Virus record (IMG/VR): IMGVR_UViG_3300032315_000109
Coordinates: 1 to 53,264 of that record
DNA from: a virus
Taxonomy: Duplodnaviria; Caudoviricetes
Strand: one strand, 5' to 3'
DNA length: 53,264 nucleotides
Part shown: piece by piece, positions 15-53,264 of the stretch
How the letters are laid out: each line of letters begins with the position of its first letter
Numbering within the stretch: position 1 is the first letter of the stretch
Translations under genes and position numbers: made by a program
The notes under the pieces: generated by a model
The model's input: the letters and a program-made list of their open reading frames with translations, nothing else
Told to the model about the DNA's origin: nothing
Database searches by the model: none

Positions 15-3000
15 ATTGCCAAAGCTTTCGGAAGAAGCTGTAATTGCGGCAACTGATTTAGGTCGTAAATATGCTAGACCTATGCAAGATTTGTACAATT
101 ATGGATCAAGAAGAGCGCATCAGTTTTTTACTAATGGACAAAATTATGCTCGTAATGATGGCTCTATTCCAGTAACAGATGGTTCTACCACTAGTACAAC
201 AACACCAACTCCAGCGCCTACGTTTAATTTAAATAATAAATTATCAGGTGACTTTCTTTCAGTAAAGAAATTTTTACGACAACGTGGTTTTTCTGAAGGC
301 GGTATAGCTCATATGCAAGAAGGTGGAGTTCCACCAGAATCAGTCGTGCGTTTAAAGCCTATTCGTTCTTCTGACTCAGTTAACCGCGCTCGTGCTTTCT
401 TTGGTCAAGGCATGGGTATGTCTATTGGTGATGAAGCAGAAGCTTTGTACCGTAAATACTTAACTGATGAAGGTTCTAACAAGAGCTATGGTCAATTGGT
501 TGATGAAATTCGTAGCGATTACCGTCGATTCTCTGAAGAGAACCCAGAGCAGCAAATGGCTTTTGAACTTTCTGGTGGTATTGCTCCTACTGTAGGTGCA
601 ATGTTGTTGCCCGGAGGTCAGGCTGCGGCTGGAGCTAATACTGCTCGTATGGCTAACATGTTCACAAAAACTCCATTGCGTCGTGCTGCAACAGGTGCTG
701 GCGCTTCTGGTGCTGTATCAGGATTTAATGCAGGTGAAGATACATTGTCTAATCGTTTAGGCAGTGCTACCGAAAGCGGATTAACTAGTACAGTGCTAGG
801 CCCTGTCGTTGGTAAGGCTGGTCAACTTGCCCTGCGTGGTGGTAAGGGTGCTATAAACCTTGCTAAGCGCCCATTCCAGATTGGTGACAATTATCTTGAG
901 CAGCAAGCTATGGACAAGGTATTGGCAAAGATGCGTCAAGATGGAATAACACCTCGCGAAGCTGTTGGTCGTATTGCTAATGATCGTGGATACAATCCAA
1001 CTACTAGACCTGTAGGAACTCGCCCTGACACTCGCCTGATGGATGTCTCACAGGGATTAACTGACTTGGCTGAAACCGTAACGCAGAGACCCGGAGGCGG
1101 TCGTACTGCTATGGTTGAGGACATGAAGAATCGTGTTCGTGGCACTAAGGGCAGAGTCACACAAATGGCTAATGAGGCTCTAGCAGGTAACAAGGCTTAC
1201 TTCAAAGAAGTATCCGACCTGACAAAAGACTTGCGCTCAAAGGCTGATACTGCTTACCAAGCTGCATATTCTTTTGGTGATGTATCTGACCCAAGAATTA
1301 TGGGTATTTTAGATACGCCAGAGTTTAAACGTGCTTATCAAGAAATAATGAAGACTAATCAAATTAAGAAGGCTAATGCGGTTGCATTAGGTGAAGACCC
1401 TTCACAGTTTGATATGAAGCAGATTTATCGAGTCAAGCCCGGACAAAATCCTGACAGCCCTATTCTTGATTTAGAGTTGACTGATGTTCCTGATGTTAGA
1501 ACTTTGGACAACATCAAGCAAGGCATTGATACAGTTATTGCTAAAGGGTTTGCAAGCGATGACAAGATTAGCCGAGATGCAGCTAATGCTCTCAAGCAAC
1601 TGAAGAACACTTATGTAAGCATTATTGATGAGGCAGTACCTGCTTATAAAGTTGCGCGCAATCAATACAAGGGCGACATTGAGATTATTGAGGCATTAGA
1701 AACTGGTCGTAATCAGTATTCAAAAATGCTACCTGATGAAGCAATGCAGTATGTTTCTACATTGAGTGATGCTGAAAAACAGGCTTTACGTGTTGGCTAT
1801 GCTCAAAACTTTGCTACCAAGATTGGTGAGTCTAAGAACTCAATCAATGCTGCTGAGCAGATAATTGGTGCTGAGAATGAGCGTTTACGTTTAAGAGCAT
1901 TGTTTAACTCTGATGCTGAATACAAAGTATTTGAAAATGCTTTGATGGCTGAGTCTCGCAACTTTAGAAATGCAGGTCAAGTGGTAGCAAATTCTGCTAC
2001 CGAGCGCCGTGCTATGGGTCGTAAAGAGTTTGAAAACAATGATGCTGTTGGTGAAATACTTGATGCTACTCGCGGTGGTGTAACTAGCACTGTACTTAGC
2101 ATTTTGCGTAAAGCTCCATCACTGTTTAAGAATGAAAAAATAGCTGAGAAAGTAAGCAAGATTCTTTCTACTGGCACACCACAAGAAATTAATTCCATTC
2201 TAAAGCAAATGGAAAAACGTGCTGTTGGCTTCTCTAAGTCTGCAAAGACTAATGAGCGTGTTGGTTATGCAGGTGCTAAGGGTACTGGCAGGGCATCAGG
2301 TCAAACGCCTATTGCAGCTTCATATGAAGAGCCAGCTCCAGAGGAACTTCCATCAGCAATTGATCCAAGCTCAGAGGGTGCATTAGACCCGTCAGAAAGT
2401 GTTGTTTTTGATTCTCCAGAGATGGAACAACAAGACATGGAAGAGCCAGAGCAGGTAGAAGTTCCAATGGAAATGCAAAGATATAGGGGTGGTGCTGTAC
2501 GTGGTTATGCTGAGGGTGGTTCTGCTAGAGAAGCTAATTATGTTTCAGACATTTTAGACAGAATGGATGTTAGTGCTTATGCAGATCAAATGCAGCAAGG
2601 TAAAAACAGAAGTAAGTTTATGATGGGTAGGCTTGGATATCGTCAACCACTTGCAGATAACAGACAATTATCTGGTGGCTTATCTGGTAATGCTGTTGAA
2701 TATGAGGGTGAGGATAATCGAGGCAATAAATATCAGGGCAGCAAATCTGGTTTGACAGGCGCTGATTTAGCTTATGAAGATGAAAAGAACCGTCTAGCTG
2801 TTAAGTATGCAACTCCACAAGGAGAGAATAAATTATCATTTCAAGCTTTAGAATATGCTCGTAAGCTTGCAAATAACAAAGGAAATGTTGGTGGTCGTTA
2901 TTCTAGAATTTCTCCAGAAGGCATGCGCCGTGATCCACAGGTTGAAGTTTTCTATAACAGACAATTTAAAAATGGCGGAGCAGTAAATCAAAAAGCTATG

Positions 3001-3030
3001 CGTGGTGTAATGAAAAAAATGAGAGGTTGA
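1..3030 (+). CDS. C-terminal part of giant internal virion/ejection polyprotein (continues from 51472 across the origin; about 1602 aa in total)
   Basis: Frame 1 is open from position 1 (PVVDPLPKLS) and in frame with the ORF starting at 51472. Helical Ala/Gly-rich ejection-protein-like core with several xxGG motifs and a C-terminal beta-rich module. Confidence 0.8.
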   Translation, partial: PVVDPLPKLSEEAVIAATDLGRKYARPMQDLYNYGSRRAHQFFTNGQNYARNDGSIPVTDGSTTSTTTPTPAPTFNLNNKLSGDFLSVKKFLRQRGFSEGGIAHMQEGGVPPESVVRLKPIRSSDSVNRARAFFGQGMGMSIGDEAEALYRKYLTDEGSNKSYGQLVDEIRSDYRRFSEENPEQQMAFELSGGIAPTVGAMLLPGGQAAAGANTARMANMFTKTPLRRAATGAGASGAVSGFNAGEDTLSNRLGSATESGLTSTVLGPVVGKAGQLALRGGKGAINLAKRPFQIGDNYLEQQAMDKVLAKMRQDGITPREAVGRIANDRGYNPTTRPVGTRPDTRLMDVSQGLTDLAETVTQRPGGGRTAMVEDMKNRVRGTKGRVTQMANEALAGNKAYFKEVSDLTKDLRSKADTAYQAAYSFGDVSDPRIMGILDTPEFKRAYQEIMKTNQIKKANAVALGEDPSQFDMKQIYRVKPGQNPDSPILDLELTDVPDVRTLDNIKQGIDTVIAKGFASDDKISRDAANALKQLKNTYVSIIDEAVPAYKVARNQYKGDIEIIEALETGRNQYSKMLPDEAMQYVSTLSDAEKQALRVGYAQNFATKIGESKNSINAAEQIIGAENERLRLRALFNSDAEYKVFENALMAESRNFRNAGQVVANSATERRAMGRKEFENNDAVGEILDATRGGVTSTVLSILRKAPSLFKNEKIAEKVSKILSTGTPQEINSILKQMEKRAVGFSKSAKTNERVGYAGAKGTGRASGQTPIAASYEEPAPEELPSAIDPSSEGALDPSESVVFDSPEMEQQDMEEPEQVEVPMEMQRYRGGAVRGYAEGGSAREANYVSDILDRMDVSAYADQMQQGKNRSKFMMGRLGYRQPLADNRQLSGGLSGNAVEYEGEDNRGNKYQGSKSGLTGADLAYEDEKNRLAVKYATPQGENKLSFQALEYARKLANNKGNVGGRYSRISPEGMRRDPQVEVFYNRQFKNGGAVNQKAMRGVMKKMRG

Positions 3031-3031
3031 T

Positions 3032-6000
3032 ATGGGTAAGAAAAAGCTTTTAACGGAAGCGCTTGAAGGAGCATTGTCAAAGCTTCCAAAAGGTTCTTTA
3101 TCCTCTCAAGCAAAAGTTGCGCGCGAAATGGAACAGGAAGCTGCTGATCAAGCAGCTCTTTATACAGCGCAACCAATAAGCAATAAAACAGGTAAGGATG
3201 CAATAGCGCAAGCTAAGCAGACATTATCTGCGCCAAAATCCAAGAAGCCATTGACTAAAGAGCAATTCCAAAACCAATACGTTCAGCACATTGATCTCAG
3301 AGGTAGAGAAGGTAATGCCGAAGAAAATGCTAAGTCAATAATGGAGGGTGGGTTTAGACGTGGTGTAAATGCTAATGCATACACTCCATTTAGCGGTCTA
3401 CCTCATAGAGATGTTGTGAGTGCAAAGTTCCAACCTCAAGAGGGTGATTTTGTTTACTTAGCTCCAAAGGGGCAGTGGGTAACAACTCCTAATGGTGTGA
3501 AAATCAAAGAAGGATTTAAACCAGAGCCTCATGAGGTTATCAGAGTTACTGATCCTAATATGTCAATGTATGAGCATTACTTAGCTAACTTTGACAAACC
3601 ACAAAAAGGCGGTAAGGAAAAGTTCCTTGAGCCAAGTATGGTTAAGCAACGCCTGTATCATGGAACTGGCTCTGATATTTCAGAATTTAGACCAAATTCA
3701 TTTTTTAGTGATGACCCAAAAATTGCTGCAATGTATGCAAAGTCTCAACATAGAGCAGTAGAAGGTAGTGGGCCAAACATTATTCCTGTTGACGTTCAAT
3801 TTGAAAACCCTTATTTCCACGACGAAAATCAAGCAAGGAAACAAGGAAAAAACTTTGCACAAATAATTGCACCTGATGCTCCAGCAAAGGGAAGGCTTCA
3901 AGAGGCATTAAGAATTTTAAGAGAAAAAGGTCACGACAGCGTTATTCTTCAAAATTTTGATGATATTGGTGGTCGTCAAAATCAATATATCGCTCTTGAT
4001 CCAAGCAAAGTTAAGTCAGCCATAGGTAATCGTGGCACATATGATCTTAATGATGAAGACATAACTAAAGCTAAAGGCGGTCTTGTGCATCTCGCTAAAG
4101 GTGGTGTATTGCACCTTGCTAAAGGCAGCCAAGAATTCCCTGTTGGTAAGTATTACCGTGATGAAGCAACTATAGGCCCACTAAAGCCAGTTCGCCCAGT
4201 AGCTTCTTTTGCTGGTGATTTTTTGCAAGGAACTCACGACTTTGTTTCTAAACCATTTGGATATCCAAATCCACCAATGGAAATGTTTTCAGAGTTAATG
4301 ACTGTACCAGCATGGGCAAGAACTCTAAAAGATTATGGTAACGGTTTTTCATTAACTACAGGTGCTGGTCAAACAACAAAACTTACACCAGATGCAGAAG
4401 AAGCTGCATTAACCTTAGTGCCTTTAATTGGCCCTGCCGCTAAAACTTTATCTAAGGTAGGTAGAAAAGTAATTAAAGAAGGCGCTCCATATGCTGCTAA
4501 TCAAGCAGTGAATCTGATGGAGAAGTATGGTGTTAGTCCGACCATGAATGTGATTAAGCCTAAAGGCGGCAATTGGTCAACTGAGAGTAGTGCTATAAAT
4601 AGTTTAAAAATTAAAAGACCTGCTGACAAATCAGACCCTGTTAAAGTTTTAAGAGATCATGATAAATATTACAATCCTTCATTACTAAAAACATTTACAG
4701 AAGAAGGTCTAACTAATGCAGCAAATAAAAGACAAAAACTTGTTAATCAAGTAAATGTAAATGAGTGGATTGATAAAAAATTAAACAATTACCTAAAAAA
4801 TGAAATGGCAACACCTGAAGACTCAGTTCGTTTAGGTATAGAGCGTAGATATGAAGAAGCTCAAAAAATAAAAGCCACTAATGATGCAAAGCTCGCAAGA
4901 ATGCGAGATGCAATAGATAAGCGCAAGGCTGAAGGTAAAGACACAACTTTATCTGAGAGAGATTATGAAGCGGCAGTTGAAAAAGCTAATGAAGAAAATA
5001 TTTTTGCAAATAGAAGTATTTCTCATATGACTGCGCCTGAAGAAGGTTGGAAACCTTCTTTTGGTAATAACTATGTTTCTGATGAGCTTGCTTTCAAAAG
5101 GAATACAGCAGGTTATCCAGAAGAAGGTATGGGTAAAAATGAAGCATCTAAAACATGGGAATATATTAGTGATTCTTCAATTATTCCTGTTAAAGCAGGT
5201 TCAATTCCTGATAACTCTTATTCTTTAATTAGAGACCCATGGATAACTAAAGTTGCTGAAAAAGACCCTAACACACCAATATATAATCTGGATGATGCTT
5301 GGATTAGACATGATGCTGAGTTTAGTCACATGATTGATGAGCTTCAAGAGGCTATGAGTCCTACTTCTGTGTTGCCTCAGAATTTAAGAATAAGTGAAAA
5401 AGATTTAGCAAAAATGACTGTGGATGATGTATCTGCATTGTCTGGAAAAATTAGTGCATGGCGTGACATACAAAAAGTAAAAACCAATAAAGAAATTGCT
5501 AATAACCCAGCTACTTTTACATTCAAAGAGTACACAGAAAACAATCCTAAAGGTGTTAGTTGGAAGCAGATCAAACGACCAGAAGGTTATTCTGATGAAG
5601 AAGCAGAAAAATATGTTCGTGCAGCCACTCAATATGAAGGCGACATAATGCGCCATTGCGTTGGTGGTGCTGGTCATTGTGACCCATTGCTAGATGGTGA
5701 GGTTGAGATTTATAGCTTGCGTGATGCGAAAGGTGAGCCTCATGTAACTATTGAAGTATCTGCAAAACCAGACCCAAGAGTTAAGGGTAACACTCCTGAT
5801 GATTTTTATTTATCTTTGCCAATGGAAGAAATGGCAAAAGTTCCTCCAAAACCAAGAGTTACTAATTCTTCAGATATGGAGCAAGTGTATTGGAACAGAG
5901 CAATTGTTCAATCTCCACAGTATCAAGAATGGTTGAAATCAAGACCAAGAGAAATTTTAGAAATTAAAGGTAAAGCTAATGCAAAACCTAAAGATGAATA

Positions 6001-8344
6001 CTTGCCATTCATTCAGGACTTTATTCGTTCTGGTAAATGGGGCGCTATTGGCGACATTTCTAACACTGGTCTAAGGTCAGCAAGAAGCGTTCTTGGTGAA
6101 GGTGTGGTTAATGAATTGCGTAAACGTGGTGAATATGTTCCACCAGTTATGGGATTTGATGAGGCTGTCAAGTTCCAAGAAATGTACAACCCAGAAGCAT
6201 TTAAAGGCGTTACTAGCATAGATGATTACAGAAAAGTATGGGACAAGGGCGGCATGGGAGGTGATGGCTATGCAGAGGGTGGCTTAGTTGAGGATGATAA
6301 CAACTTGATGTCATTAGTTGACGAACATTTTTTAAATCAGCCAATGGCTTTTGGTATTGGTGGTATCGCTAAAAAAATAGCTGGCAAAGCTGCAAAGAGC
6401 TTAGAGAGTCAATTAGATGACTCTGTTGAAAAACTTCTTGATGCCCATACTGCTGCAAAAGCAAAGCCAAAAGCTAAAGCTAAATCAAATCCTGATGATA
6501 AATTTTTGCCTTTAGATTTGCCTAGAGCGCGTCGTAGCAAACAGGAAATTCAAAGTGAAGCAGAACGAGTTTCCCGTCAAATAATGGGTGAGCATGTTCG
6601 TGATCCTAGAAAGCCAAATGATTCTGCAAACCTTGCTGATAGATCAATGGCAGAGGTTGAAAGATTAAAAGGAATTAATTACACCTTAGAGGACATAAAA
6701 GACCTACCAGAGCCAATTATTATTGATCCTAAATTAGGTGACATTAACATAGCCACTGTTGGTGATATTACTGTTGCTGACAAACGATTAGTTGATATGA
6801 ATGGCTACCCAATTGAGTCAGTCCAACAGGGTGGCCCGTTCTTTGGTTTGGGCAAGCTTCGCCAGATGGGTGATGAGGATTTATGGTGGGCTTCTGAACA
6901 TCAAGCGGCTAAAAACTTTCAAGCAAGAGTGGATGAGATAGCTAATTATTTTGGAGTTGATAGGTTAACAGCTCAACATTTGGCAATGGGTCAAAGAGCT
7001 AATAACTTTGCTATGCATTTTGCTGATGCCAATTTAAAAGCAATCAATACTTTCGGTGCGCCAGAAGAAGGTATTGAGGGCATGAATAAATTAATTCGTG
7101 AAGGCTACTCATTAGCAGACAAAAAAACAGGAGAACGGAAATACTTTGCATGGCCTGACTTCCCCGGAGTCGAAAACATTGATGAGGCTTATAAGTATTT
7201 TAGACAAGACCCAGAGGCGAGAAAGTGGTTTAACGACCGCATGAAAAAACCATCAGTAACAGACAAGTTTGGTCTTCCAAATGGGTTGGACATTCAATAT
7301 GCAATTAGTGATGAAGTTCTGCGCAACATGGAAAAAAATCTAACTGGTCGTTCAGTTGGAGAGGTTTATAGAGGCTCTGGATTAAAAGACACTGCCAATC
7401 ATGGGACATATGACACAGGCATCAAGGGTAGGTTTCTTGGTAGATCAAAATACCCAATACCTGTAAAACTTAGTTACTCTGATGCATATGACTACACAGC
7501 AGCTAGAAAGCGCCCAAGTGATGTAACTGGCACTTTGCAAAAAGTAGCTCCTCATCAAATTGTTGATGATCAGTATTTAAATGAAATTGGAGAGTTTAAT
7601 TACTTAATCAATAAATACACAGGCAAGCGCAAGGGTGGCTTAGTTGATGATGATGACAAAGAATTAAGCCAAGAATATTCTGCCATACAAAGATTGCTTG
7701 GCAAGTATGCATACACCTTGGACAAACATAAAAGGTACAAGAGCGAAAAATACTCTGGCAAGGATGATGAGGTTGTTTCTCGTCGCAAGCCTTTTGATGA
7801 AATGACTGTACCGATGCCCGGAGACTTTAGGGGGAACACAATCAAGACTCCTTTTGGCGAAAGGTACAAGGATGACGAGTACAAACAAAACAATATGCCA
7901 GAGACTAATGAGGATGATATTCAGCGCAAGAAGGAGCTGCGGTACTACCAGAAGGGTGGCAGAACTACTGCCAAAGGCCGTGTTGAGCGCAAAATGTATG
8001 ACCTTGATGCTAATGAGCCAAATCGCATGGGAATTGCTCCCTATGGCTTGCGATATGCCCTCTCAGCAAGAGAAATGCCACAAGCCAAGGGTAAGGGCTA
8101 TATGGGTGAAATGCGTGGCTCTGAGGGGGTTGTGACGGAATATTCTTTGGATGACATGGATTTGGGTGCTTTCCCAAGTGTTACACCTAACCAGCCAAAT
8201 GAAAACCTTGATGAAATCAATCGAGGTAAGGTAAGTCATAGCACATATCAGTTAGCAAAAAAGTATGCTGCCATGCGTAAAAAAGCTGGGAAGAGCGCAT
8301 TTGCCCAAATGGACGAATTACGCTATCCCCAGCCTCAAGATTGA
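3032..8344 (+). CDS. Large polyvalent virion protein (1770 aa) with ADP-ribosyltransferase (ART-PolyVal-like) and PcfJ-like domains
   Basis: LYHGT...FFSDD...YA...NPY...DSVI...KVKSAIGNRGTYD (ART-PolyVal pattern); EGDIMRHCVG...IYSLRD.KGEPHVTIEV...EIKGKAN (PcfJ pattern); last gene of the virion operon. Confidence 0.8.
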   Translation: MGKKKLLTEALEGALSKLPKGSLSSQAKVAREMEQEAADQAALYTAQPISNKTGKDAIAQAKQTLSAPKSKKPLTKEQFQNQYVQHIDLRGREGNAEENAKSIMEGGFRRGVNANAYTPFSGLPHRDVVSAKFQPQEGDFVYLAPKGQWVTTPNGVKIKEGFKPEPHEVIRVTDPNMSMYEHYLANFDKPQKGGKEKFLEPSMVKQRLYHGTGSDISEFRPNSFFSDDPKIAAMYAKSQHRAVEGSGPNIIPVDVQFENPYFHDENQARKQGKNFAQIIAPDAPAKGRLQEALRILREKGHDSVILQNFDDIGGRQNQYIALDPSKVKSAIGNRGTYDLNDEDITKAKGGLVHLAKGGVLHLAKGSQEFPVGKYYRDEATIGPLKPVRPVASFAGDFLQGTHDFVSKPFGYPNPPMEMFSELMTVPAWARTLKDYGNGFSLTTGAGQTTKLTPDAEEAALTLVPLIGPAAKTLSKVGRKVIKEGAPYAANQAVNLMEKYGVSPTMNVIKPKGGNWSTESSAINSLKIKRPADKSDPVKVLRDHDKYYNPSLLKTFTEEGLTNAANKRQKLVNQVNVNEWIDKKLNNYLKNEMATPEDSVRLGIERRYEEAQKIKATNDAKLARMRDAIDKRKAEGKDTTLSERDYEAAVEKANEENIFANRSISHMTAPEEGWKPSFGNNYVSDELAFKRNTAGYPEEGMGKNEASKTWEYISDSSIIPVKAGSIPDNSYSLIRDPWITKVAEKDPNTPIYNLDDAWIRHDAEFSHMIDELQEAMSPTSVLPQNLRISEKDLAKMTVDDVSALSGKISAWRDIQKVKTNKEIANNPATFTFKEYTENNPKGVSWKQIKRPEGYSDEEAEKYVRAATQYEGDIMRHCVGGAGHCDPLLDGEVEIYSLRDAKGEPHVTIEVSAKPDPRVKGNTPDDFYLSLPMEEMAKVPPKPRVTNSSDMEQVYWNRAIVQSPQYQEWLKSRPREILEIKGKANAKPKDEYLPFIQDFIRSGKWGAIGDISNTGLRSARSVLGEGVVNELRKRGEYVPPVMGFDEAVKFQEMYNPEAFKGVTSIDDYRKVWDKGGMGGDGYAEGGLVEDDNNLMSLVDEHFLNQPMAFGIGGIAKKIAGKAAKSLESQLDDSVEKLLDAHTAAKAKPKAKAKSNPDDKFLPLDLPRARRSKQEIQSEAERVSRQIMGEHVRDPRKPNDSANLADRSMAEVERLKGINYTLEDIKDLPEPIIIDPKLGDINIATVGDITVADKRLVDMNGYPIESVQQGGPFFGLGKLRQMGDEDLWWASEHQAAKNFQARVDEIANYFGVDRLTAQHLAMGQRANNFAMHFADANLKAINTFGAPEEGIEGMNKLIREGYSLADKKTGERKYFAWPDFPGVENIDEAYKYFRQDPEARKWFNDRMKKPSVTDKFGLPNGLDIQYAISDEVLRNMEKNLTGRSVGEVYRGSGLKDTANHGTYDTGIKGRFLGRSKYPIPVKLSYSDAYDYTAARKRPSDVTGTLQKVAPHQIVDDQYLNEIGEFNYLINKYTGKRKGGLVDDDDKELSQEYSAIQRLLGKYAYTLDKHKRYKSEKYSGKDDEVVSRRKPFDEMTVPMPGDFRGNTIKTPFGERYKDDEYKQNNMPETNEDDIQRKKELRYYQKGGRTTAKGRVERKMYDLDANEPNRMGIAPYGLRYALSAREMPQAKGKGYMGEMRGSEGVVTEYSLDDMDLGAFPSVTPNQPNENLDEINRGKVSHSTYQLAKKYAAMRKKAGKSAFAQMDELRYPQPQD

Positions 8345-36101: not shown

Positions 36102-37835
36102 ATGGCATACATAACCATACCGCAGCTAACCGCAGGAACAGCACTTACTGGTCTAGAACAGTTTGAAGCTGTTCAGTCTTCTGCTTCAGTTAAGTTAACT
36201 GCTAATCAGCTTAAAACATTCGTCAACCTAAATCCGCAATTTATTATTACTGATTCAAGCATTAATACTGTAGCTGTAGCAGCAAACTTTATTCATGACA
36301 CAACAGCAAACCCTGCAACAATTACTGCTGGCATGGGTGTTTCTGTTAATTTAAGTGCAGAGCTAAATGTAAATGGTGTATTTAATGGTGCATCAATAGC
36401 ATCAGTTGCTGAGAATGTTACTTCTGGTTCAGAGGCAATGAACCTGCAATTAAAAACATCATTAGCTGGAGCAGCTCCAACAACTAAGGTTTTAATTGCT
36501 AGTAATGGTAGGGTTACGATCACTCCTGAAGTAACATTAGTTGATAATCTTTACATTGATGCCATCAACACAAATAGCTCCATAGCATTTCCAATTACCT
36601 TAAACCACAAAACTACAGACAATACTGCTGCTACTGGTATCGGTACTGGCATATTATTCCAGTGTAATCTTAGTGGAGCTGGATCAACTTCTGGGGTTGG
36701 TGTTGGTCAATTAAATATGATAGCTACTGATGTAAGTTCAGTATCAACATCAAAGTTTGATTTTGTAATTAGGCTATTAAGAAATGTAACTCTTAGTGAG
36801 GTTGCTCGCTTTACTAGCGATAAGAAGCTTGGTGTTGGAACTAATACTCCAGCTACTGCTCTTGAGGTTGCTCTTGATGATGCAAACAATAGTTCGGCTG
36901 TATCTGTTTCTCGTTTTACTCATACTACTTCAAGCAGTGCTGCTGTTGGTATTGGTACTGCTGTAGAGTTTGCAACAGAAACAAATGATGGCATCAAAGT
37001 TGGAGCTGCAATATTTACTCAGTCAACTGACCTCACAGTTGGTTCAGAAGACTTTGTTCTTAGTATTGGGACAATGACTAATGGTGCATCTCCTACTGAA
37101 AAATTTAGAGTCGGTGAAGTAATTTACACACCAAGATTTATTGGTGCTGGTGTAATTCCTACTAATGCTTGGCTAACTGCTGGTGCTGGCACTTCTAGCA
37201 TTGCAGCTTCTAAATTTACTGCTGGATCATTACTATCATCTCCCATAACTGGTGGTTTTGAATATGATGGATATGCTGCTTACTTTACACCTCAAAGCAC
37301 AAATCGCGGTGTATTGCCAGCAGAACAGTTTTTCCAATTAGGAGCTGATTTATCTGGTAATGGTGCTACTACTGCTGCTCAAACAATGTTTGGTAGGGTT
37401 GTATCTTTAGCCTCTAATACTAGGTATGCATATGAAATATGCGCACTTATTACCTGTACCGCAGGTGGCGGAAAAACTATTGGTTATGCATTAGGTGGTA
37501 CAGCAGTTCTTAGCGCCCATTCATATACTGTAATTAGTTCTGAGGTTGGAACTTCAACTACGGTAAGCCATGCGCACATAATGCGTAATAGAGTTTTATC
37601 TAGCTTTGCTACTCCAGTTGTAATGAGTCCTTCTGGCGCTGCTGGCTCTACATCACTAAGAATTTGTGGAACAATTGACATGTTGTCTGGCTCTTCAGGT
37701 ACTGTTGATTTCCAATTTAACTATTCTACAAATGGAACAGTAGTAACAATTGGTGCAGGTTCTTATGTAAAGATTTACCCAGTTCAAACAATTAATGCTA
37801 CTACCGACAATACTCAAATTGGTACTTGGAGCTAA
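36102..37835 (+). CDS. Fibre protein 2
   Basis: N-terminus resembles fibre 1 (I.QL....ALTGLE....VQ....KLT); LGVGTNTPATALEV motif. Confidence 0.75.
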   Translation: MAYITIPQLTAGTALTGLEQFEAVQSSASVKLTANQLKTFVNLNPQFIITDSSINTVAVAANFIHDTTANPATITAGMGVSVNLSAELNVNGVFNGASIASVAENVTSGSEAMNLQLKTSLAGAAPTTKVLIASNGRVTITPEVTLVDNLYIDAINTNSSIAFPITLNHKTTDNTAATGIGTGILFQCNLSGAGSTSGVGVGQLNMIATDVSSVSTSKFDFVIRLLRNVTLSEVARFTSDKKLGVGTNTPATALEVALDDANNSSAVSVSRFTHTTSSSAAVGIGTAVEFATETNDGIKVGAAIFTQSTDLTVGSEDFVLSIGTMTNGASPTEKFRVGEVIYTPRFIGAGVIPTNAWLTAGAGTSSIAASKFTAGSLLSSPITGGFEYDGYAAYFTPQSTNRGVLPAEQFFQLGADLSGNGATTAAQTMFGRVVSLASNTRYAYEICALITCTAGGGKTIGYALGGTAVLSAHSYTVISSEVGTSTTVSHAHIMRNRVLSSFATPVVMSPSGAAGSTSLRICGTIDMLSGSSGTVDFQFNYSTNGTVVTIGAGSYVKIYPVQTINATTDNTQIGTWS

Positions 37836-37837
37836 TC

Positions 37838-38137
37838 ATGGCGATTATTAAAGGTTGGCATTTTGCAAAAGGCGGTCAGGTTAATTTGACTGTTAAGCAT
37901 AAAAATCCAGAGGGTGGTTTAAGCCAAGCAGGTCGTGATGCTTATAATAAAGCAACTGGCAGTAATTTAAAGCCACCAGTCTCTAAAGAGGCTGCTGCAA
38001 AGAGTCCTGCTAAAGCTTCTCGTAGAAGTTCCTTCTGCGCTCGTATGGGTGGCATGAAAGCAAAGCTAACTTCTGCTGAGACTGCAAAAGACCCTAATTC
38101 AAGAATCAATAAAGCCTTACGCAAGTGGGATTGTTAA
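37838..38137 (+). CDS. DUF6321-like basic phage protein with N-terminal FAKGG motif
   Basis: GGLSQAGR..YN..TGSNLKPP...RRSSFCARMGGM...DPNSRINKALRKWDC. Confidence 0.75.
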   Translation: MAIIKGWHFAKGGQVNLTVKHKNPEGGLSQAGRDAYNKATGSNLKPPVSKEAAAKSPAKASRRSSFCARMGGMKAKLTSAETAKDPNSRINKALRKWDC

Positions 38138-38153: not shown

Positions 38154-39749
38154 ATGGGCAAAAATATTAAGTATGGTGAGTTTACTTTTAACAAGCCAAA
38201 CCCTCGTCCAGCCGTAAAAGGCTATGCATTTGGTGGTGCTACTGAACCAGTCGCCGCTCCTATGGCTGCTAAAAAGCCAATGCCAACTCCTGCTCCTCTT
38301 GACCCCGCTATGCAGCGCCAAAAAGAGAATCAAGCGGTTATTAATAAAGCAAATGCAAATCCTAATAGAAAAGGAAGCCCGCTTCTAATTGATCCAGTTG
38401 CGATAAAAGCTGCGACTGATAGGAACATGGAGATTAGGAAAGCTACTGATGCTAGACATAAAGCAGAAGCTATAGCGAATAGAATACCTCCTAGTAAAGA
38501 CCCATATTCAGCATTAAAACGTAGCATGGATGCTATACAGGATCGTAGCAGTGCGCCTATAGCAAGACAAAAAGGCGGCAAGGTTGGATTGTGGGACAAC
38601 ATCCATGCAAAAAGAGAGCGTATTAAAGAAGGCTCTGGTGAGAAAATGAGAAAAGCTGGCTCTAAAGGCGCTCCTTCTGCACAAGATTTCAAAAACTCCG
38701 CTAAAAAGATGCAAGAAGGCGGTGAGGTAAAAGGTTATGCGGCAGGTGGTATGTATGACTTTGATGATGCACCAATTCAACGAAGGAATGCCAAGGCAAA
38801 AGCTACAAAATTAAAGTTAGCTGAAGACGCAAAAAGAGAAGCTGCTGAATCTAGAAGCCGATATGAAGAAGGTCAAGGTAAGGCAAATTTACTGCCAAGC
38901 CCTGTAAGAATGAAAGAAGGTGGAGAAGTTCAGGGTTATGCGTCAGGTGGTATTTTGTCTAAAGCATTAAAAATGGTTGAAAATATGCGTGGCAGCCAAG
39001 ATAGCCAACCAACAGATACACAACCATCCTTAGTTAAAGATAATTTAAGTAGTGCAATGCAAAAAATTCAACCAAAAATTGGTTTGATTTCTTCTGCGCT
39101 TAGGGATTCCAATCCACAGCCAGCTCAATCCCAAAATATGGGTAATATAACTAATGCATTGCAAAGATTTTCTCCGAGTTTTTCACAAAATCGTGGTTTT
39201 ATTGGAAGGGCGCTTGCTACCAATCCGCAGCCAGCTCCAGCTCAAAATTCTAGTAATGTAACTAGAGCTTTACAAAGTATTTCCCCAAAATTTTCAAAAG
39301 TTCGTGGTTTGATTGGAAGATCACTTCCTTCGAATACTGGGTTAAAAGAAGGTGGTAGTGTTTCAAAAGATAATCCTAAAGCATCAAAAAATGCAAAATC
39401 TATGGAAAGCTCAGCTAAAGACAAGGCTCAAGACAAGGCAATGATCAAAAAAGCTATGAAGCAGCATGATCAGCAAGAGCATAAAGGTGGTAAAGGTACT
39501 GTTTTAGAGCTTAAAAAAGGCGGCAAAGCTCCAGTTAAAGGTGTAAAGCTAGTTGGCATGAAGCGAGAGCCTGAAGCTGTTATAAAGAAAGAAATATCTT
39601 TGCTTAAAAAGGCTGGCGCTCCTGCAAAGATGATTAAGCATGAAGAAATTGAAGCTATGTCTCCAATGTCATCCATGGGTGGTATGCGCAAAGGTGGGTC
39701 TGCTATGAAAAAAGGTGTTCCAACCTTTAATCGCACCCCTAAATGCTAA
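38154..39749 (+). CDS. Basic low-complexity modular virion protein with 9-10 xxGG motifs
   Basis: YAFGG, RQKGG, MQEGG, YAAGG, MKEGG, YASGG, LKEGG, LKKGG, MRKGG; AAGGA RBS. Confidence 0.8.
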   Translation: MGKNIKYGEFTFNKPNPRPAVKGYAFGGATEPVAAPMAAKKPMPTPAPLDPAMQRQKENQAVINKANANPNRKGSPLLIDPVAIKAATDRNMEIRKATDARHKAEAIANRIPPSKDPYSALKRSMDAIQDRSSAPIARQKGGKVGLWDNIHAKRERIKEGSGEKMRKAGSKGAPSAQDFKNSAKKMQEGGEVKGYAAGGMYDFDDAPIQRRNAKAKATKLKLAEDAKREAAESRSRYEEGQGKANLLPSPVRMKEGGEVQGYASGGILSKALKMVENMRGSQDSQPTDTQPSLVKDNLSSAMQKIQPKIGLISSALRDSNPQPAQSQNMGNITNALQRFSPSFSQNRGFIGRALATNPQPAPAQNSSNVTRALQSISPKFSKVRGLIGRSLPSNTGLKEGGSVSKDNPKASKNAKSMESSAKDKAQDKAMIKKAMKQHDQQEHKGGKGTVLELKKGGKAPVKGVKLVGMKREPEAVIKKEISLLKKAGAPAKMIKHEEIEAMSPMSSMGGMRKGGSAMKKGVPTFNRTPKC

Positions 39750-44144: not shown

Positions 44145-44584
44145 ACTTATCTCCAAACTTCACGCTAGAAGAGATGACCGCTAGTGAAACAGCGGAGCGT
44201 CATGGTATTGACAATACACCTGATAATGATGTGTTGATGAACTTGCGTCGCCTAGCTTTATTTTTGGAAGAAGTGCGAACTGTTGTTGGCATGCCATTAC
44301 GCATAAATTCTGCATTTCGCAGTGTAGAGGCCAACCGCCTAGTCGGAGGAAAACCTACCAGCCAACATTGCCTTGGGGTTGCAGCAGACCTTAAAGTAAA
44401 AGGTATGACTCCCAATGAGGTTGTATCTGCAATCATAAAAGCAGGTTTGCCATACGATCAGGTGATAAGAGAATTTGACTCATGGACTCATGTGAGCATC
44501 CCAAACACTAAAGATGCGAAGCCTAGAAAAATGGCTCTCATTATTGATAAAAAAGGTACAAGACCTTTTAGCAAGGAGAAGTAA
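44141..44584 (+). CDS. Endolysin, peptidase M15A family
   Basis: LSPNFTLEE, INSAFR, SQHCLGVAAD, WTHVS. Confidence 0.88.
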   Translation: MNLSPNFTLEEMTASETAERHGIDNTPDNDVLMNLRRLALFLEEVRTVVGMPLRINSAFRSVEANRLVGGKPTSQHCLGVAADLKVKGMTPNEVVSAIIKAGLPYDQVIREFDSWTHVSIPNTKDAKPRKMALIIDKKGTRPFSKEK

Positions 44585-48259: not shown

Positions 48260-48913
48260 ATGGCAATCGTTGACAGCAAACAAAAAATGTTAGGCGTAAA
48301 TGAGCTAATTCAAGAAGCATATGAGAATGAAGAAGATCATGTTTTGCCATTAGAGCTTGAATACCCTAGATTTGTTCAAGAACGAATGATGCCTAATTCT
48401 AATTTCCTTCGATATGGAAACACAATATTCGTTCTACTTGGAGATGATAAAAGAGCTGGCATTGCTTCCATGAGAATTTTAATAGCAGATACTGAAGAAA
48501 ATTTTATTCAAGCTCTTTATCAATGTTTTAAAGATGCCTATGAAATAGGCTATTTCTTATTAGTAGTAAGAGAGAACATTAATGAACCTCTTGTTAATGC
48601 TTTAGAAATAATTGAAAACGATCCAAAAAACCCAGACATTGAATACAGTATGGATAAAGACAGCGATGGTGATGATGTTATTGGAATTGTGATTGGTAAT
48701 CCTAATGGCACTGAATTAAAGCAGCCAATTCCTTATGATGTTGAGCCACCTAAGAATTCTCAAGAAGCAATGGCTAGAATGATGAATCAATCTGGTCAGC
48801 CTCAACAACCAATGAGTGGTGGTCAAATGCCACCAATGCAACCTTCTATGTCTGCACCACCTATGGGTGGACTAGGTCAATTGCAAAACAATTTAACTGA
48901 AGGCGAGGTGTAA
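48260..48913 (+). CDS. Hypothetical protein (acidic, Pro/Met-rich tail)
   Basis: AAGGA RBS; 217 aa. Confidence 0.7.
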   Translation: MAIVDSKQKMLGVNELIQEAYENEEDHVLPLELEYPRFVQERMMPNSNFLRYGNTIFVLLGDDKRAGIASMRILIADTEENFIQALYQCFKDAYEIGYFLLVVRENINEPLVNALEIIENDPKNPDIEYSMDKDSDGDDVIGIVIGNPNGTELKQPIPYDVEPPKNSQEAMARMMNQSGQPQQPMSGGQMPPMQPSMSAPPMGGLGQLQNNLTEGEV

Positions 48914-48914
48914 C

Positions 48915-50450
48915 ATGGGATGGGTAAAATTTAGAAATAAAGTAACCAAACCTTTTAAAGAAGCTGCTAAGTGGGTTGAAGATTCAGCAAAAGATTTAGG
49001 TAGGGGTATAAGAGAGTCAGTAAAAGATGTAGGTAATTTTGTTGAAGACACATGGAAAGATGCTGGCAAACTAGTAAATGACTATGTTCTTAAACCAATT
49101 AAAGCAGACCCATTAGGTTTTATTATTACTGCGGCAGCGGCTTCATTTGGTATTCCGTTCATTGTTGGCCCGGGTGCTATTGCTTCTGGACTTGCAACTA
49201 CAGCAGTTAATCTTGCTCAGGGTAGAGATTTTGATGATGCTCTAAGGGCAGGTGTTACTGCTGGCGTGTTAGATTTTGGAGTAAGCGAAGGTATAAATGC
49301 TTTATCAAGCGCTCCAAAACCATTTGGTTCGTCGTTAGGTGCTACTAGTAAAGCTCCAACATTTGCAGACATATTTAGTGATGCCTCAACACCTTCAACA
49401 GCTTCAGCAGTTGATACAGCAAGCGATAATTTCAATAAACAATTATCACTTGATAATGGCATAGGTAATGATTTAATGTCAGCAGCGCCAGCTAATGATC
49501 AATTTAGCTCATTGCTAGACCCAAATCGTCCAATAGATTTTGATCCGTATAAGCCTATTAAAAATGAAACTTATTTAACTGATGATGGCATGTTAGGTTT
49601 TGATAAAGGTCAATATGCTGCATATACAGAACCAGCACCAAGACTTTCAGATATATACCCAGAACCAAAAAATTATTTAAGCGATATAAGCACAAATGAA
49701 TTAGGTGCTTTACCTGATCAAGTTCCTTATCCAGCACCAATAGTAGATATGGGAACAGAAGCAGCAAAACAAGCTTCAGATGGTGCTTATCATTGGTGGG
49801 AAGACCCAGTAGGTAGCGTTGGTAAATACTCAAAAGACATGATTGGTGTTGATGTTACCAATCCATGGATTGTTGGTGGTGCTACTCTTGGATTAAATTA
49901 TTATTCTAAGAAAAAACAAGAAGAAGAAAATGAAAGACTTTTAGAAGAGCAAAGAAGAAATGATCCAGCAAATAGTCCTACATTTACTACTCCTATGCAG
50001 CAATATCGAATGCAGAGAAACAGGAATAGATACACTGGAGACTTAACAAGATATGGTGAAAGACGTGATGGGAATACAGGTGAGTTTAATTTTTACGACC
50101 CAGCAGTATATGTTCCTGTAAGTTCAGACCCTACAATACAAGCAGCAACTGGTGGTCAAATTAGAGCGCCTTATTACACCTATGGCAATGCTCCACAGGG
50201 GTATCGTGCTGGTGGTTTGAGTTCTTTGTCTGATGGTCGCTCTGATGATATACCTGCCGTTCTTTCTGATGGCGAGTATGTGATGGATGCTGAAACAGTT
50301 GCATTACTTGGCAATGGATCAACGGATGCTGGAGCTAAGCAGTTAGACCGCATGAGAACATCTTTAAGAAAGCAAAAAGGAAAATCTTTAGCTAAAGGTA
50401 AATTTTCTCCTAATGCTAAATCTCCATTAGCTTATTTACAAAGAGGCTAA
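48915..50450 (+). CDS. Internal virion protein with C-terminal SDDIPAVLSDGEYV domain
   Basis: Glycine-zipper hydrophobic segments; AATGG and YRAGG motifs, then the GEYV domain at about 50232-50380. Confidence 0.8.
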   Translation: MGWVKFRNKVTKPFKEAAKWVEDSAKDLGRGIRESVKDVGNFVEDTWKDAGKLVNDYVLKPIKADPLGFIITAAAASFGIPFIVGPGAIASGLATTAVNLAQGRDFDDALRAGVTAGVLDFGVSEGINALSSAPKPFGSSLGATSKAPTFADIFSDASTPSTASAVDTASDNFNKQLSLDNGIGNDLMSAAPANDQFSSLLDPNRPIDFDPYKPIKNETYLTDDGMLGFDKGQYAAYTEPAPRLSDIYPEPKNYLSDISTNELGALPDQVPYPAPIVDMGTEAAKQASDGAYHWWEDPVGSVGKYSKDMIGVDVTNPWIVGGATLGLNYYSKKKQEEENERLLEEQRRNDPANSPTFTTPMQQYRMQRNRNRYTGDLTRYGERRDGNTGEFNFYDPAVYVPVSSDPTIQAATGGQIRAPYYTYGNAPQGYRAGGLSSLSDGRSDDIPAVLSDGEYVMDAETVALLGNGSTDAGAKQLDRMRTSLRKQKGKSLAKGKFSPNAKSPLAYLQRG

Positions 50451-50453
50451 AAA

Positions 50454-51452
50454 ATGGCAAATGTTCTTGACAAGGTAACTGACTTTCTTTTTGGAGGTAC
50501 TACACCTCCATCAGTTAAGACTTATGGAACTACAACTACCACAACACCTGCTTGGTATAACGACTACACACAGGCTTTAATTGGTAAGGCTAATGCAATT
50601 GCATCAGAACCATATCAAGTTTACGATGGAAGTCGTATTGCTGGGTTTACTGATAATCAAAATTTGGCATTTGCATTAACACCTGAAGCTGCTAGTTCTT
50701 ATCTTCCATATATGAATCAAGCAAGTAATATATATGACAAGCTTGGAAATACTAGTGCATTAAGCAAAGCTCAGCCTTATTTAAACAATTCAGCTCAAAC
50801 TAGTTATGCAAATGTACAAAATTACATGAACCCATACATGGATTCGGTTACAAATCGAATCGGTCAAATGGCTCAGCGTAATTTGTCTGAAAACATTATT
50901 CCAACAATTCAGAATCAGTTCATTGGTGGTGGATCGTTTGGTGGTAGCCGTAGCGGTACAGCTATGGGTAAAGCAATGCGTGATATATCTGCTGATACTT
51001 TAGCGCAACAAACTAGCGCATTAGCTAGTGGCTACAATCAAGCAATGGCTCAAAGCCAAGCTGATTTAACAAGACAAGGACAACTAGGTCAAATAACTGG
51101 GGCTATATCTCAAGCAGACCTTACTAGACAACTTCAACTTGGTCAGAATGTTGGCGCTCTTGGTGCATTGGCGCAGTCACTTGGTCTTAATGAGGCTGCT
51201 GCATTGGAAGCTGTTGGTCTTACACAGCAAAATCAAAATCAGAGAAACCTTGATTTGGCTTACAAGAATTTTGCTGATCAAAGAGATTATCCAAGAGAGA
51301 ATATTTCATTCTTAAATAATGCTATTCGTGGCTTATCTATCCCTACTACATCAACTGCAACTGGAGTAGGCCCTGCATCTTCCGTAGGCCCATCTGGATT
51401 ATCACAGCTTGCTCAGGCTGGTGCGCTTATATATGGTATTGGTAAGAAGTAA
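50454..51452 (+). CDS. DNA ejection / internal virion protein
   Basis: YMNPYMDSV, GSFGGSR, Gln/Gly-rich helical repeats. Confidence 0.7.
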   Translation: MANVLDKVTDFLFGGTTPPSVKTYGTTTTTTPAWYNDYTQALIGKANAIASEPYQVYDGSRIAGFTDNQNLAFALTPEAASSYLPYMNQASNIYDKLGNTSALSKAQPYLNNSAQTSYANVQNYMNPYMDSVTNRIGQMAQRNLSENIIPTIQNQFIGGGSFGGSRSGTAMGKAMRDISADTLAQQTSALASGYNQAMAQSQADLTRQGQLGQITGAISQADLTRQLQLGQNVGALGALAQSLGLNEAAALEAVGLTQQNQNQRNLDLAYKNFADQRDYPRENISFLNNAIRGLSIPTTSTATGVGPASSVGPSGLSQLAQAGALIYGIGKK

Positions 51453-51471
51453 TTAATTTAAAGGCATACAA

Positions 51472-53264
51472 ATGGCTTATCAACCTCGTAGAAATAATAA
51501 CTTGGCAGAGTTTGATTTTGAGAGCTTAATTTCTCCTCAACAGGATGAAAATACTAAGCTACTTCAAAGCGACATGCCAACTGATAATGATCTATTAGCC
51601 CTTAATCAAAGGGCTGAAGTTGCTGAAGAACCAAATGCTGATTTAATAAGCCAACAAACTTATGTAAGCAATCCAACATTTGCTAATAAGGCTAGTCAAG
51701 CTGGCGAGCGTTATTTATCGCAAAAGAAAATAGAAAGAAGCACAACTGCTGAGATTTTAAAAAAAGCACAAGAGGCTTTACTTGCTAGATCAGAAGAAGG
51801 CTGGACTCGTGGTGATTATTTTAGACTTGCTGCTGCTCTTGGTAAGCCAACAAGGTTTGGTACATTTGGTGAAGAATTAGGTAATGCTGCTGAAGTTATG
51901 GCAAGTGTTAGTGATCGTCAAACAAAAGCTAAGCAAGACTATGAAGCACTGAAATTAAAATACCAATTACAAAATGCAGCTCAACCTGCTGAAGACGCTG
52001 AGCAAGAATTTGGTGTATATACCAAACTTGCAACTGGTAGAGGTCAATCTGCATCTAGACTTCGCCAAATGCAAATAGAGCGTGATGCGCTACCAATGAA
52101 TGACCCAGCTCGTGCTGAGTTGGATGCCGCTATTCAGTTATACACTACTGAAAAGAAAACAAAAGCTAATACCCCTTCTGGTCAATTTGTTGAATTAGTA
52201 AACATAGCTAATGATTCTAGTCAGCCACAAGCAGTAAGAGAAGCGGCTGCTGCAAAGATAAGAAAAGAAACATACATTCCTCCTCAGAAAGCACCAAAGG
52301 GTGAGCCGCCTCCAGTAGTTAATTTAACTGCTGCTGAAAACACTGGTATGCGTTTAGGTGTTCCTGTCATGATTGACAGCCCATTTTCTAATGTTGATCA
52401 AAAAACTCAACAGCAATTAGTATTGCAAGCAAGCAAACGTGCGCAAGCTGAAATAGCAAAAGTTGAAGAGGCAGCAGACAAAGCTCAATTCTCTCAGCAA
52501 AAGATGGCGCGTTTTCTTAAACTAAATAAAGAAAACCCAACCAACCCTCTTACTGGAAAACTACCTTCCTTCAGAGCTGCTGCTCAAGAAATGGATAACA
52601 TTACTGCTGAGCTTGCACCTGAAAAAAGATTGGAAGGAACAGGTTCAGTTTCTGACTTTGATGCTAAGCAGTTGCTTAAAGCGGTTGTTAACCCAAGCAA
52701 TTCTTATGAGGCTAACAAAAATATTGGCTTGGCATGGGATGCTTATGCAAAAACAATAAAAGAGAAAAGTAATTTCTTGCGTAACTACTTTACTACCAAT
52801 AAAACTTTGGATGGCTCTAGTCAGGCATGGATGCGCTACATGAATGCGAATCCTATTTTTGATCCAAAGCAGCCCGGTACTTTTGCACCTAACAAAAATC
52901 GTAAGACTTACAAAGACTTTTTCTATCCACCAAAGCCACAGGGTAAAGCTGAGGGTGGCATAATTAATTATTCTGATGGTGGGCAAGCTTCTACTCAACA
53001 CAGCAATTACTATGAACAGAATCAGCCAGATTTATCTGTGTTGATGAATAAGTATGCTAAAGGTGGAGAAGTAAAAAATAAATTGTATGACAAGTATGGT
53101 CGTCAAAAATTAGGTTGGGGTGGTAAAGGCACAGCCATAGCATACGCACAAGCAAACCCTACTGCACCAGCTCAAACTGGTGGCGGTTTTATGGGTGACT
53201 TTACTACAAAACTTGTATCTACTATAAAAGATGCACTACCAAAAAATGATCCAGTTGTTGATCC
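51472..53264 (+). CDS. N-terminal part of the giant internal virion polyprotein (runs off the end, continues at 1..3030)
   Basis: ATG at 51472 (MAYQPRRNNN...) after AAGG; no stop before the window end; GSVSDFD and KAEGG/YSDGG/YAKGG motifs. Confidence 0.8.
   Translation, partial: MAYQPRRNNNLAEFDFESLISPQQDENTKLLQSDMPTDNDLLALNQRAEVAEEPNADLISQQTYVSNPTFANKASQAGERYLSQKKIERSTTAEILKKAQEALLARSEEGWTRGDYFRLAAALGKPTRFGTFGEELGNAAEVMASVSDRQTKAKQDYEALKLKYQLQNAAQPAEDAEQEFGVYTKLATGRGQSASRLRQMQIERDALPMNDPARAELDAAIQLYTTEKKTKANTPSGQFVELVNIANDSSQPQAVREAAAAKIRKETYIPPQKAPKGEPPPVVNLTAAENTGMRLGVPVMIDSPFSNVDQKTQQQLVLQASKRAQAEIAKVEEAADKAQFSQQKMARFLKLNKENPTNPLTGKLPSFRAAAQEMDNITAELAPEKRLEGTGSVSDFDAKQLLKAVVNPSNSYEANKNIGLAWDAYAKTIKEKSNFLRNYFTTNKTLDGSSQAWMRYMNANPIFDPKQPGTFAPNKNRKTYKDFFYPPKPQGKAEGGIINYSDGGQASTQHSNYYEQNQPDLSVLMNKYAKGGEVKNKLYDKYGRQKLGWGGKGTAIAYAQANPTAPAQTGGGFMGDFTTKLVSTIKDALPKNDPVVD
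53251..53264. repeat. Terminal direct overlap, copy 2
   Basis: Identical to 1-14. Confidence 0.85.

Follow-up and report, generated by a model that had tools for sequence, protein, structure and literature searches.

What is the Gly-Gly motif that recurs through the late proteins of a tailed phage, and what does it do there? The window analysed here is a stretch of 53,264 nt, IMG/VR virus record IMGVR_UViG_3300032315_000109 (Duplodnaviria; Caudoviricetes), in which a preliminary description had proposed that a genome-wide motif ending in Gly-Gly splits five late proteins into modules, as a cleavage site or a capsid-loading tag. The motif, of the form h-x-x-G-G(-h-V), is in frame and enriched, and it is the terminal signature of an exchangeable cassette in ejection and effector proteins, kept at the joints where cassettes are fused. 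Each unit (the 511-residue protein, a gp16-like core, ART-PolyVal, PcfJ-like and small basic modules) can be its own gene within this aquatic podophage group; in the lineage of the window, units follow one another in head-to-tail fusions of 1602, 1770 and 531 residues with a tag at each joint. The recombination that brings in or removes cassettes takes place inside the codons of the tag, right around the GG.

One of the five proteins runs across the ends of the window. These overlap by 14 nt (positions 1-14 equal 53251-53264), so the genome closes to a circle, and the window is a circularly closed podophage genome of 53,250 bp; the virus record is classed as 'linear', with a CheckV completeness of 94%. 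The joint is crossed by an unbroken reading frame, which is likewise continuous in a 92%-identical relative (locus L001), and the origin-spanning protein (OSP) that had been postulated is real, at 1602 residues: 593 in an N-terminal part (51472..53250) and 1009 in a C-terminal part (1..3030). The others are a 1770-residue protein (3032..8344), a 103-residue DUF6321 protein (37826..38137), a 531-residue chain of small basic modules (38154..39749) and a 511-residue protein (48915..50450), all of them, with their tags, on the + strand.

Translation gave the expected pentapeptide, in frame, at 15 of 15 sites listed beforehand, and the sites at 37862 (FAKGG) and 50202 (YRAGG) were also borne out; that at 50142 falls on a near-invariant family position but reads AATGG, outside the residue class given for the motif. 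When the pattern [YFMLK]xxGG was counted over the 47 proteins of the window, 48 matches were found, 26 of them in the five named proteins (OSP 9, 1770-residue protein 7, 531-residue protein 8, 511- and 103-residue proteins 1 each) and 22 in the other 42. Against composition-preserving shuffles (300 per protein set, 2000 for the per-protein test), the five proteins carry far more copies than expected (26 versus 7.85 ± 2.67; reached in 0 of 300 shuffles), the more so if V or I is required two residues past the GG (10 versus 0.74; again 0 of 300), whereas the rest of the proteome is flat (22 versus 18.3, a value reached by 63 of 300 shuffles; with V or I, 0 versus 2.4). Six of the 22 outside matches are chance matches in a single protein of 325 residues (34721-35698; phrog_2295), 32% glycine with 45 GG pairs, which overlaps the end of a 749-residue protein and probably belongs to the tail, as a fibre or collagen-like part. 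Tested singly, the 531-residue protein (8 versus 1.06, p<0.0005) and OSP (9 versus 2.58, p=0.002) are enriched; the 1770-residue protein (7 versus 2.72, p=0.016) fails correction for 47 tests, and the 511- and 103-residue proteins show no individual enrichment by shuffling, their copies being supported by homologue conservation alone. 'Genome-wide' was therefore an overstatement: enrichment is statistical in three proteins and two more join them by homology.

The tandem arrangement noted beforehand, with pairs 8-9 residues apart, occurs six times in the window. A larger collection of 113 unique instances gives 95 spacings between successive copies; 16 of these measure 7-9 residues, with a peak at 8. 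The motif logo reads [K/M/Y/L/F]-[A/K/Q/S]-[K/E/A]-G-G-[L/K/I/V]-[V/A/T]. Codons differ among copies, which have only ~8-11 nt of DNA in common, and the GG is invariant in the 511-residue family; the motif is thus under selection at the protein level.

Whether relatives gain or lose modules at the motifs had been set beforehand as a test. The relatives used are IMG/VR loci: the 92%-identical L001, then L002 and L003 (both ~50% identical in OSP), and L004-L007 (~28%). In L001 the giant proteins are longer, at ~1920 residues for the OSP homologue and ~2210 for the second. When the two pairwise alignments of the giant proteins, window against L001, were segmented objectively, 11 segments came out as divergent or as indels, and all seven borders of the four large indels (227, 75, 142 and 222 residues) lie inside a motif copy. 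Over all segments, 12 of 21 borders fall within ~10 residues of a tag, such zones making up, by our estimate, ~12% of positions. No motif stands at the borders of residues 424-478 and 911-977 of the 1770-residue protein, or at the right border of an ART swap.

The residue-level course of these exchanges can be followed in OSP. Its N-terminal part, whose N module is homologous to a separate gene in L005, has tags at residues 492, 500, 528 and 547, namely KAEGG and YSDGG (a pair 8 residues apart), YAKGG and LGWGG (52945..53124). YAKGG is the crossover point of the 227-residue indel, and the DNA at this first indel shows a hybrid tag in the window that matches the left copy of L001 through TATGCT and its right copy from AAAGG. 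The C-terminal part comprises an inserted module, a core, a C-terminal module of 165 residues and a terminal tag. Its first pair, FSEGG-IAH-MQEGG (289..327), includes an MQEGG that is kept in L001, L002 and L003. When these three are aligned with the window, L002 and L003 have an ancestral-looking junction, ..YAHGG-VVR-MQEGG-D.., and it is between these YAHGG and MQEGG copies that a module of ~160 residues is inserted in the window, and a further 227 residues in L001. The next pair, RYRGG-AVRG-YAEGG (2479..2520), is the site of the 75-residue indel and lines up with the C-termini of the core proteins in L003, L004 and L005. The terminal tag FKNGG is followed by a basic tail, AVNQKAMRGVMKKMRG, that ends the protein (2965..3030) and is homologous to the L002 and L003 tails: at the C-terminus L003 reads MKRGG and then SVYKGSRKALMKVKMKMKR, and the window YRGG, AVRGYAEGG, the 165 residues, FKNGG and AVNQKAMRGVMKKMRG. 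The four-way alignment thus indicates that cassettes enter directly after the GG, each with its own xxGG, and that the terminal basic tail stays last. The OSP core matches phrog_5880 and is feature-similar (0.96, rank 17) to the Phage_P22_gp16 cluster, a similarity that serves as a lead only.

The 1770-residue protein is built in the same way, from an N module, an ART-PolyVal domain (residues 207-336; E=4.3e-12), a PcfJ-like region (~370-1080) and three further modules. The PcfJ-like match is weak (E=0.0028, below the cut-off) but the homologous L006 proteins are clear (4.6e-7 and 1.1e-7). At least two distinct effector-type domains are thus present in one polypeptide, whose gene directly follows the ejection-protein block and the tail genes, among late or virion genes. 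The ART domain is immediately followed by a triple tag, KAKGG-LVH-LAKGG-VLH-LAKGS (4067..4129), the site of the 222-residue indel. The tags YAEGG (6269) and FGIGG (6350) lie together at 6269..6364. Identity to L001 jumps at YAEGG from divergent to ~95%, and it is at this point that the PcfJ-like proteins of L006 have their C-terminus. KRKGG (7625) and YQKGG (7946; together 7625..7960) bound a module of ~100 residues. Tags had been said to bracket the ART-PolyVal domain; the copies directly after it stand, but the upstream copy PQKGG (3599) is not conserved, reads TKKTN in L001 and looks like a false positive. The 222-residue cassette that the window lacks (L001 ~15030-15640, in the 2212-residue protein) gave no Pfam match at E<=0.05; it contains ..VAGHEGRHRNLALEELG.., which we take to resemble a ParB/Srx-type nuclease motif.

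In the more distant relatives L004-L007 the fused modules occur as separate genes, and these end in the motif followed by 1-25 mostly basic residues. An L006 ART-PolyVal protein of 390 residues, which ends in ..DINMARGGLAVKPRKYAVKKSRK, aligns to the 1770-residue protein up to KAKGG; two PcfJ-like proteins of the same locus (618 and 626 residues), ending in ..GYA[V/I]GGRVSAD..RK, align up to GYAEGG at residue 1080; and the core proteins of L004 (793 residues) and L005 (796 residues), with MRNMYRGGTVQAFRNGGMASI.. at their ends, align up to OSP residue 1439. In L005, the 259-residue homologue of the OSP N module ends in GGK, the 417-residue homologue of the window's 332-residue protein in ..YKGLGGT, and the 691-residue homologue of the 511-residue protein in GGRT. 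The proposal that the motif sits at module boundaries is therefore supported twice over, by the indel borders in L001 and by modules that elsewhere are separate, motif-ended genes.

A similar picture emerges from 24 shorter metagenomic ART-PolyVal proteins, in which a GG lies at most 20 residues past the domain at 28 of 32 domain ends; where the domain ends near the end of the protein, a tag is present in 11 of 13 cases. Stand-alone ART proteins stop 6-20 residues after the tag with a basic tail, and multi-ART proteins carry a tag at every joint. The four ART ends that have no tag belong one each to P0141, P0147, P0148 and P0149. Tag and tail are both kept in P0137, a stand-alone ART enzyme of 175 residues that ends in ..DINKAQGGLTKAKRK, which argues for a signal owned by the unit and not only a joint. 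Among the separate genes and the ART set, otherwise unrelated proteins thus share a short terminal peptide, as is typical of cargo peptides. In contiguous blocks taken from 80 IMG/VR loci, 27 of 182 downstream and 11 of 281 upstream proteins carry an aromatic tag at the C-terminus, and 18 of 182 and 2 of 281 carry the strict one, a contrast that appears only with the aromatic or strict definition and with contiguous blocks.

The 511-residue protein has a hydrophobic N-terminal part, the tags AATGG (50142) and YRAGG (50202), and a conserved, tape-measure-like C-terminal domain that ends in AYLQRG; it matches the tape-measure family phrog_3547 (E=2e-4). This C-terminal domain defines a family of 3,418 proteins with the consensus.A.GG ... 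YY.YGN.P ....A.GG, then DGRSDDIPAVLSDGEYV..., ending in AYLKGA. Across 34 diverse members, G433 and G434 never vary, and conservation reaches at least 90% at A411, G413 and G414. A profile search with this family against PDB sequences returned a poly-Ala chance match only. Between the 511-residue protein and OSP lies a 332-residue protein (50454..51452, + strand) that matches phrog_4287, 'DNA ejection protein' (E=3e-23). This ejection-type gene block after the tail genes is conserved in the 80 loci and resembles the ejection set of P22. The protein encoded just upstream of the 511-residue gene (48260-48913) ends in TEGEV after a Pro/Met/Gln-rich stretch, and this ..[E/Q]GEV end is conserved in L011 (9322-9984, TEGEV), L014 (9277-9957, MEGEV) and L003 (4879-5511, TQGEV); elsewhere in the wider group, the place just upstream of the 511-residue gene is taken by a different protein, of ~151 residues.

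The two remaining tagged proteins are made of small modules. The DUF6321 protein, which probably starts at the ATG of residue 5, has its tag FAKGG (37862) in a short N-terminal leader, and the 531-residue protein carries 8-9 tags (38223, 38565, 38709, 38736, 38910, 38937, 39342, 39510 and 39684) and a phrog_16028 'GLWDNIHAKR' module at residues 143-185. In relatives the place of these two genes is taken by a common fusion protein of ~180 residues, in which an N-terminal part is joined through KKEGG-K to the GLWDNIHAKR module and this, through KMAKGG-D, to DUF6321; PHROGs splits its parts into three families. Among 67 unique open reading frames (ORFs) with the GLWDNIHAKR module, a tag stands just before the module in 31 and just after it in 27. 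In T7-like cyanophages (L009, S-RIP2, positions 1186-2001), the DUF6321 and GLYANIHAKR proteins each have a gene of their own, side by side between those for scaffold and capsid; in the family of the window the two modules are neighbours or fused.

Structure prediction supports the view that tags lie outside folded domains. In an AlphaFold2 model of residues 190-430 of the 1770-residue protein (24 aligned sequences), the ART domain is predicted with a per-residue confidence (predicted local distance difference test, pLDDT) of 86-97 up to residue ~331, past which, through the triple tag, the chain is coil with pLDDT below 50, a linker that begins just after the confident domain. The model of the whole 511-residue protein (mean pLDDT 51.6, tag region below 50) is uninformative on its tags.

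What, then, is the tag for? Tentatively, our preferred reading is a tag for docking or exit that closes each unit at its C-terminal end and stays uncut. As a short linear signal with no need for cleavage, it would anchor this end of the unit to a component of the virion at or close to the exit channel, or feed it into that channel. Cargo would be packaged, and would leave, C-terminus first, like beads on a string, with internal copies of the tag as successive handles and safe recombination joints. We favour this reading because single-domain enzymes keep both tag and basic tail, because the scans revealed no maturation protease and the head module seems to belong to the protease-free type, because the segment of lambda gpH with MRDGG is bound to the hub protein gpI, and because tape-measure C-termini are located at the exit end of the tail. 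Several observations weigh against it. No partner of the tag has been identified, and the one complex prediction, of the capsid protein with the last 50 OSP residues, scored 0.00, which carries no weight either way; both AlphaFold2 models show only low confidence at the tag region. With the loose motif there is no C-terminal excess across the 80 loci, 14% of upstream and 15-16% of downstream proteins being tagged (60 of 433 and 35 of 232 in a first count). Many gp16-like core homologues have an acidic end, ..LEKYSIEE, and no tag, and the stand-alone GLYANIHAKR proteins of T7-like phages lack one too; in Caulobacter phage RW a single protein is tagged, gp066 (one internal and one C-terminal copy), so its other internal proteins are packaged without the tag. 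In the small-module proteins the tags stand only at joints or in the N-terminal leader, which fits cleavage at least as well, and gene starts and stops in relatives coincide with the GG, as polyprotein cleavage sites would show.

A protease site, cut after Gly-Gly, would make the giants true polyproteins that are split during head maturation or after ejection, the DUF6321 N-terminal leader and the C-terminal basic tails being removed propeptides. Precedents exist in the adenovirus protease consensus, (M/I/L)XGG-X, and in the Gly-Gly-X sites of the African swine fever virus polyproteins, and several features would suit such a site: genes of relatives stop and start within a few residues of the GG (the 1770-residue protein, for example, starts where L001 reads ..GKGG followed by VAKK), residues are conserved on both flanks of the GG, tags lie in exposed, unstructured linkers, one stands in the DUF6321 leader, and tags part very small modules (~45-70 residues) of three independent PHROGs families. 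Lambda gpH, moreover, is cut in its Gly-rich C-terminal region by a catalyst and at a site that are reported as not known (PMC12617516), and that region carries FATGG, GYATGG and MRDGG. The scans of 46 ORFs or parts against Pfam and PHROGs returned a sole peptidase, the M15 cell-wall (lysis) enzyme beside the holin-like protein, and no maturation protease of the JAB, clan-CE, C39, prohead or other types, with the limit that unannotated ORFs could still encode a novel one. The HExxH-like string of the extra L001 module gave no peptidase match, and we take it to resemble a ParB-type GHxxRH motif. The head module pairs a capsid protein of ~306 residues, which has no delta domain, with an acidic scaffold-like protein encoded separately, as is the mark of the protease-free P22/T7 style, and the conserved tag and basic tail of stand-alone single-domain proteins would be pointless for a mere cut site. 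Cleavage at the tags is somewhat less likely than an uncut tag but is its main, and a strong, rival. SEA-type autoproteolysis (G|SVVV) was also considered and was rejected because most copies have no nucleophile after the GG.

Two further explanations are less likely than a docking tag or a protease site. A passive role for the motif, as a flexible linker or a scar of recombination, a tolerated joint providing microhomology for shuffling, would agree with crossovers inside tag codons, with tandem arrays of 8-residue period that look like products of unequal exchange, and with predicted disorder at the tags. It is made improbable by the little DNA that the variably encoded copies share, by the retention of A at position 2 and V or A after the GG across proteins of 25-40% identity, by the invariant GG of the 511-residue family, in which module variation plays no part, and by tags at true C-termini, where there is no joint. 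Very improbable is a mimic of the GroES mobile loop (consensus K-x-x-G-G-I-V-L) that recruits host GroEL to the modules. The phage has its own GroES homologue (27818-28237), the mobile loop of phage RW GroES, KTKGGIILTD, resembles the tag, and the tag logo can be read as K-A-K-G-G-L-V; however, fewer than half of the copies have hydrophobic residues after the GG, the third position is mostly K, H or P, the C-terminal GGK, GGT and GGRT leave no room for a hydrophobic stretch, and the better-conserved half of the tag is upstream of the GG.

Beyond the uncleaved docking or exit tag that we favour for this phage group, it is conceivable, if doubtful, that tailed phages share a general 'Gly-Gly tag code', in which h-A-x-G-G marks proteins leaving through the tail channel. 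Such a code would cover tape-measure proteins, podophage ejection proteins and injected anti-defence effectors, docking each unit at the exit gate; the same signature would be the site of lambda gpH processing, and would be portable, with cassettes traded tag to tag.

The remainder of the window is podophage-like in its PHROGs and Pfam gene layout. The small (22601) and large (23394) terminase genes are followed by those of an 854-residue portal protein (24853), the GroES (Cpn10) homologue, which lies between portal and scaffold as does gp090 of Caulobacter phage RW, and the acidic scaffold-like protein (28256). The major capsid protein (30345-31388) is a 347-residue ORF whose true start is probably the ATG at 30468, its homologues (~303-307 residues) aligning only from residue 44-47. 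Fibre-like and adaptor proteins were also annotated, among them a 328-residue protein (39819-40805) with a weak match to the SU10 adaptor family and an F5/8 type C-like part, and a 217-residue SU10-type adaptor (44584-45237) with a strong one (E=5.8e-28). The virion proteins also include tail proteins of 543 and 375 residues. Inside the tail gene cluster is a lysis pair (43644-44584), a holin-like membrane protein (43644; weak match) and a Peptidase_M15_3 endolysin (44141; E=1.6e-21). The block of main interest follows these genes and runs from a 217-residue protein through the 511-residue, 332-residue, OSP and 1770-residue proteins. By portal, the nearest cultured phages are Caulobacter phages RW, KcrB, RLK and GB2A (54% identity), followed by Roseobacter CRP-901 and CRP-902 and Pelagibacter HTVC023P; tblastn against cultured phages returned one record for OSP and five for the 511-residue protein, indicating that there is no well-studied close relative. 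The early region encodes a DNA methyltransferase (14969-16132), a 2OG-Fe(II) oxygenase (20188-20787) and a phrog_3704 'ferredoxin' protein (20962-21594; E=3e-74), a set of auxiliary genes typical of aquatic phages.

Precedents exist for polyvalent proteins, for ejection proteins and for motifs that target proteins to the capsid or mark cleavage; a conserved Gly-Gly cassette tag within them was not found in open-access print; the open-access literature yielded no paper describing the motif, and none that names DUF6321. If the tag is a portable packaging or ejection signal, it would account for the loading of arbitrary effector enzymes into the virion by podophages that have neither MuF nor MPTase domains, give a simple sequence rule for spotting injected anti-defence proteins in metagenomes, and offer a handle for putting foreign proteins into phage particles; were the general code true, any tagged enzyme would become injectable cargo. 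If it is a cleavage site, it would define a new phage polyprotein system and a candidate site for the gpH to gpH* cut in lambda. On either reading, the building and rebuilding of giant phage proteins from cassettes becomes visible at the resolution of residues.

Among known systems, encapsulin cargo-loading peptides are short, Gly-containing C-terminal peptides on unrelated cargo of an HK97-fold shell; their sequences differ from the tag. In the T4 capsid-targeting sequence with its gp21 cleavage, and in the S/A/G-X-E sites of phiKZ gp175, a short motif marks proteins of the head interior and their processing. Those motifs, by contrast, are N-terminal, have Glu at P1 and need a prohead protease, for which the scans of the window gave no candidate. 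The block is like P22 gp7/gp20/gp16 in being a three-gene set after the tail genes and in its phrog_4287 match, the gp16 likeness being a lead from feature space; to our knowledge, the P22 ejection proteins are separate and have neither such a tag nor fused effector cassettes. The N4 virion RNA polymerase is a giant ejected protein of loosely connected domains, for which passage through a channel of ~35 Å is proposed in the abstract (PMC13434306). That picture of beads on a string suits modules strung together by unstructured tags, although the N4 protein is a single enzyme and not a set of exchangeable cassettes, and its abstract reports no repeated junction motif. In lambda gpH (L171, gene H), the C-terminal 120 residues (733-853) carry FATGG (739), GYATGG (785) and MRDGG around a PAGIVHRGEFVF motif, the same sub-types as the GYA[A/S/E]GG and M[Q/K]EGG of the window, on a protein that travels through the tail channel. 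Residues 818-849, MRDGG included, have been resolved as bound to gpI, and the cut that yields gpH* is placed in the Gly-rich C-terminal region, its site unmapped (PMC12617516). Comparison of the 511-residue family with gpH by hhalign detected no homology, so the likeness is at the level of the motif only; gpH is a siphovirus tail protein and not a head-internal one. Closest in domain content are the polyvalent proteins, which the main text of Iyer et al. 2017 describes as chains bearing many effector domains each; their genes lie among those for late or virion proteins, their delivery together with the DNA is predicted, and a zincin metallopeptidase (MPTase) domain is proposed for processing; that main text makes no mention of 'glycine', 'linker' or 'GG motif' (PMC5512222). 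The ART-PolyVal and PcfJ-like domains place the proteins of the window beside these. An MPTase or MuF head-incorporation domain is frequent, though not obligatory, in polyvalent proteins. Neither the window proteins nor their L001 homologues gave a Pfam or PHROG match to either domain, and the conserved tag, at junctions and termini alike, is their new element.

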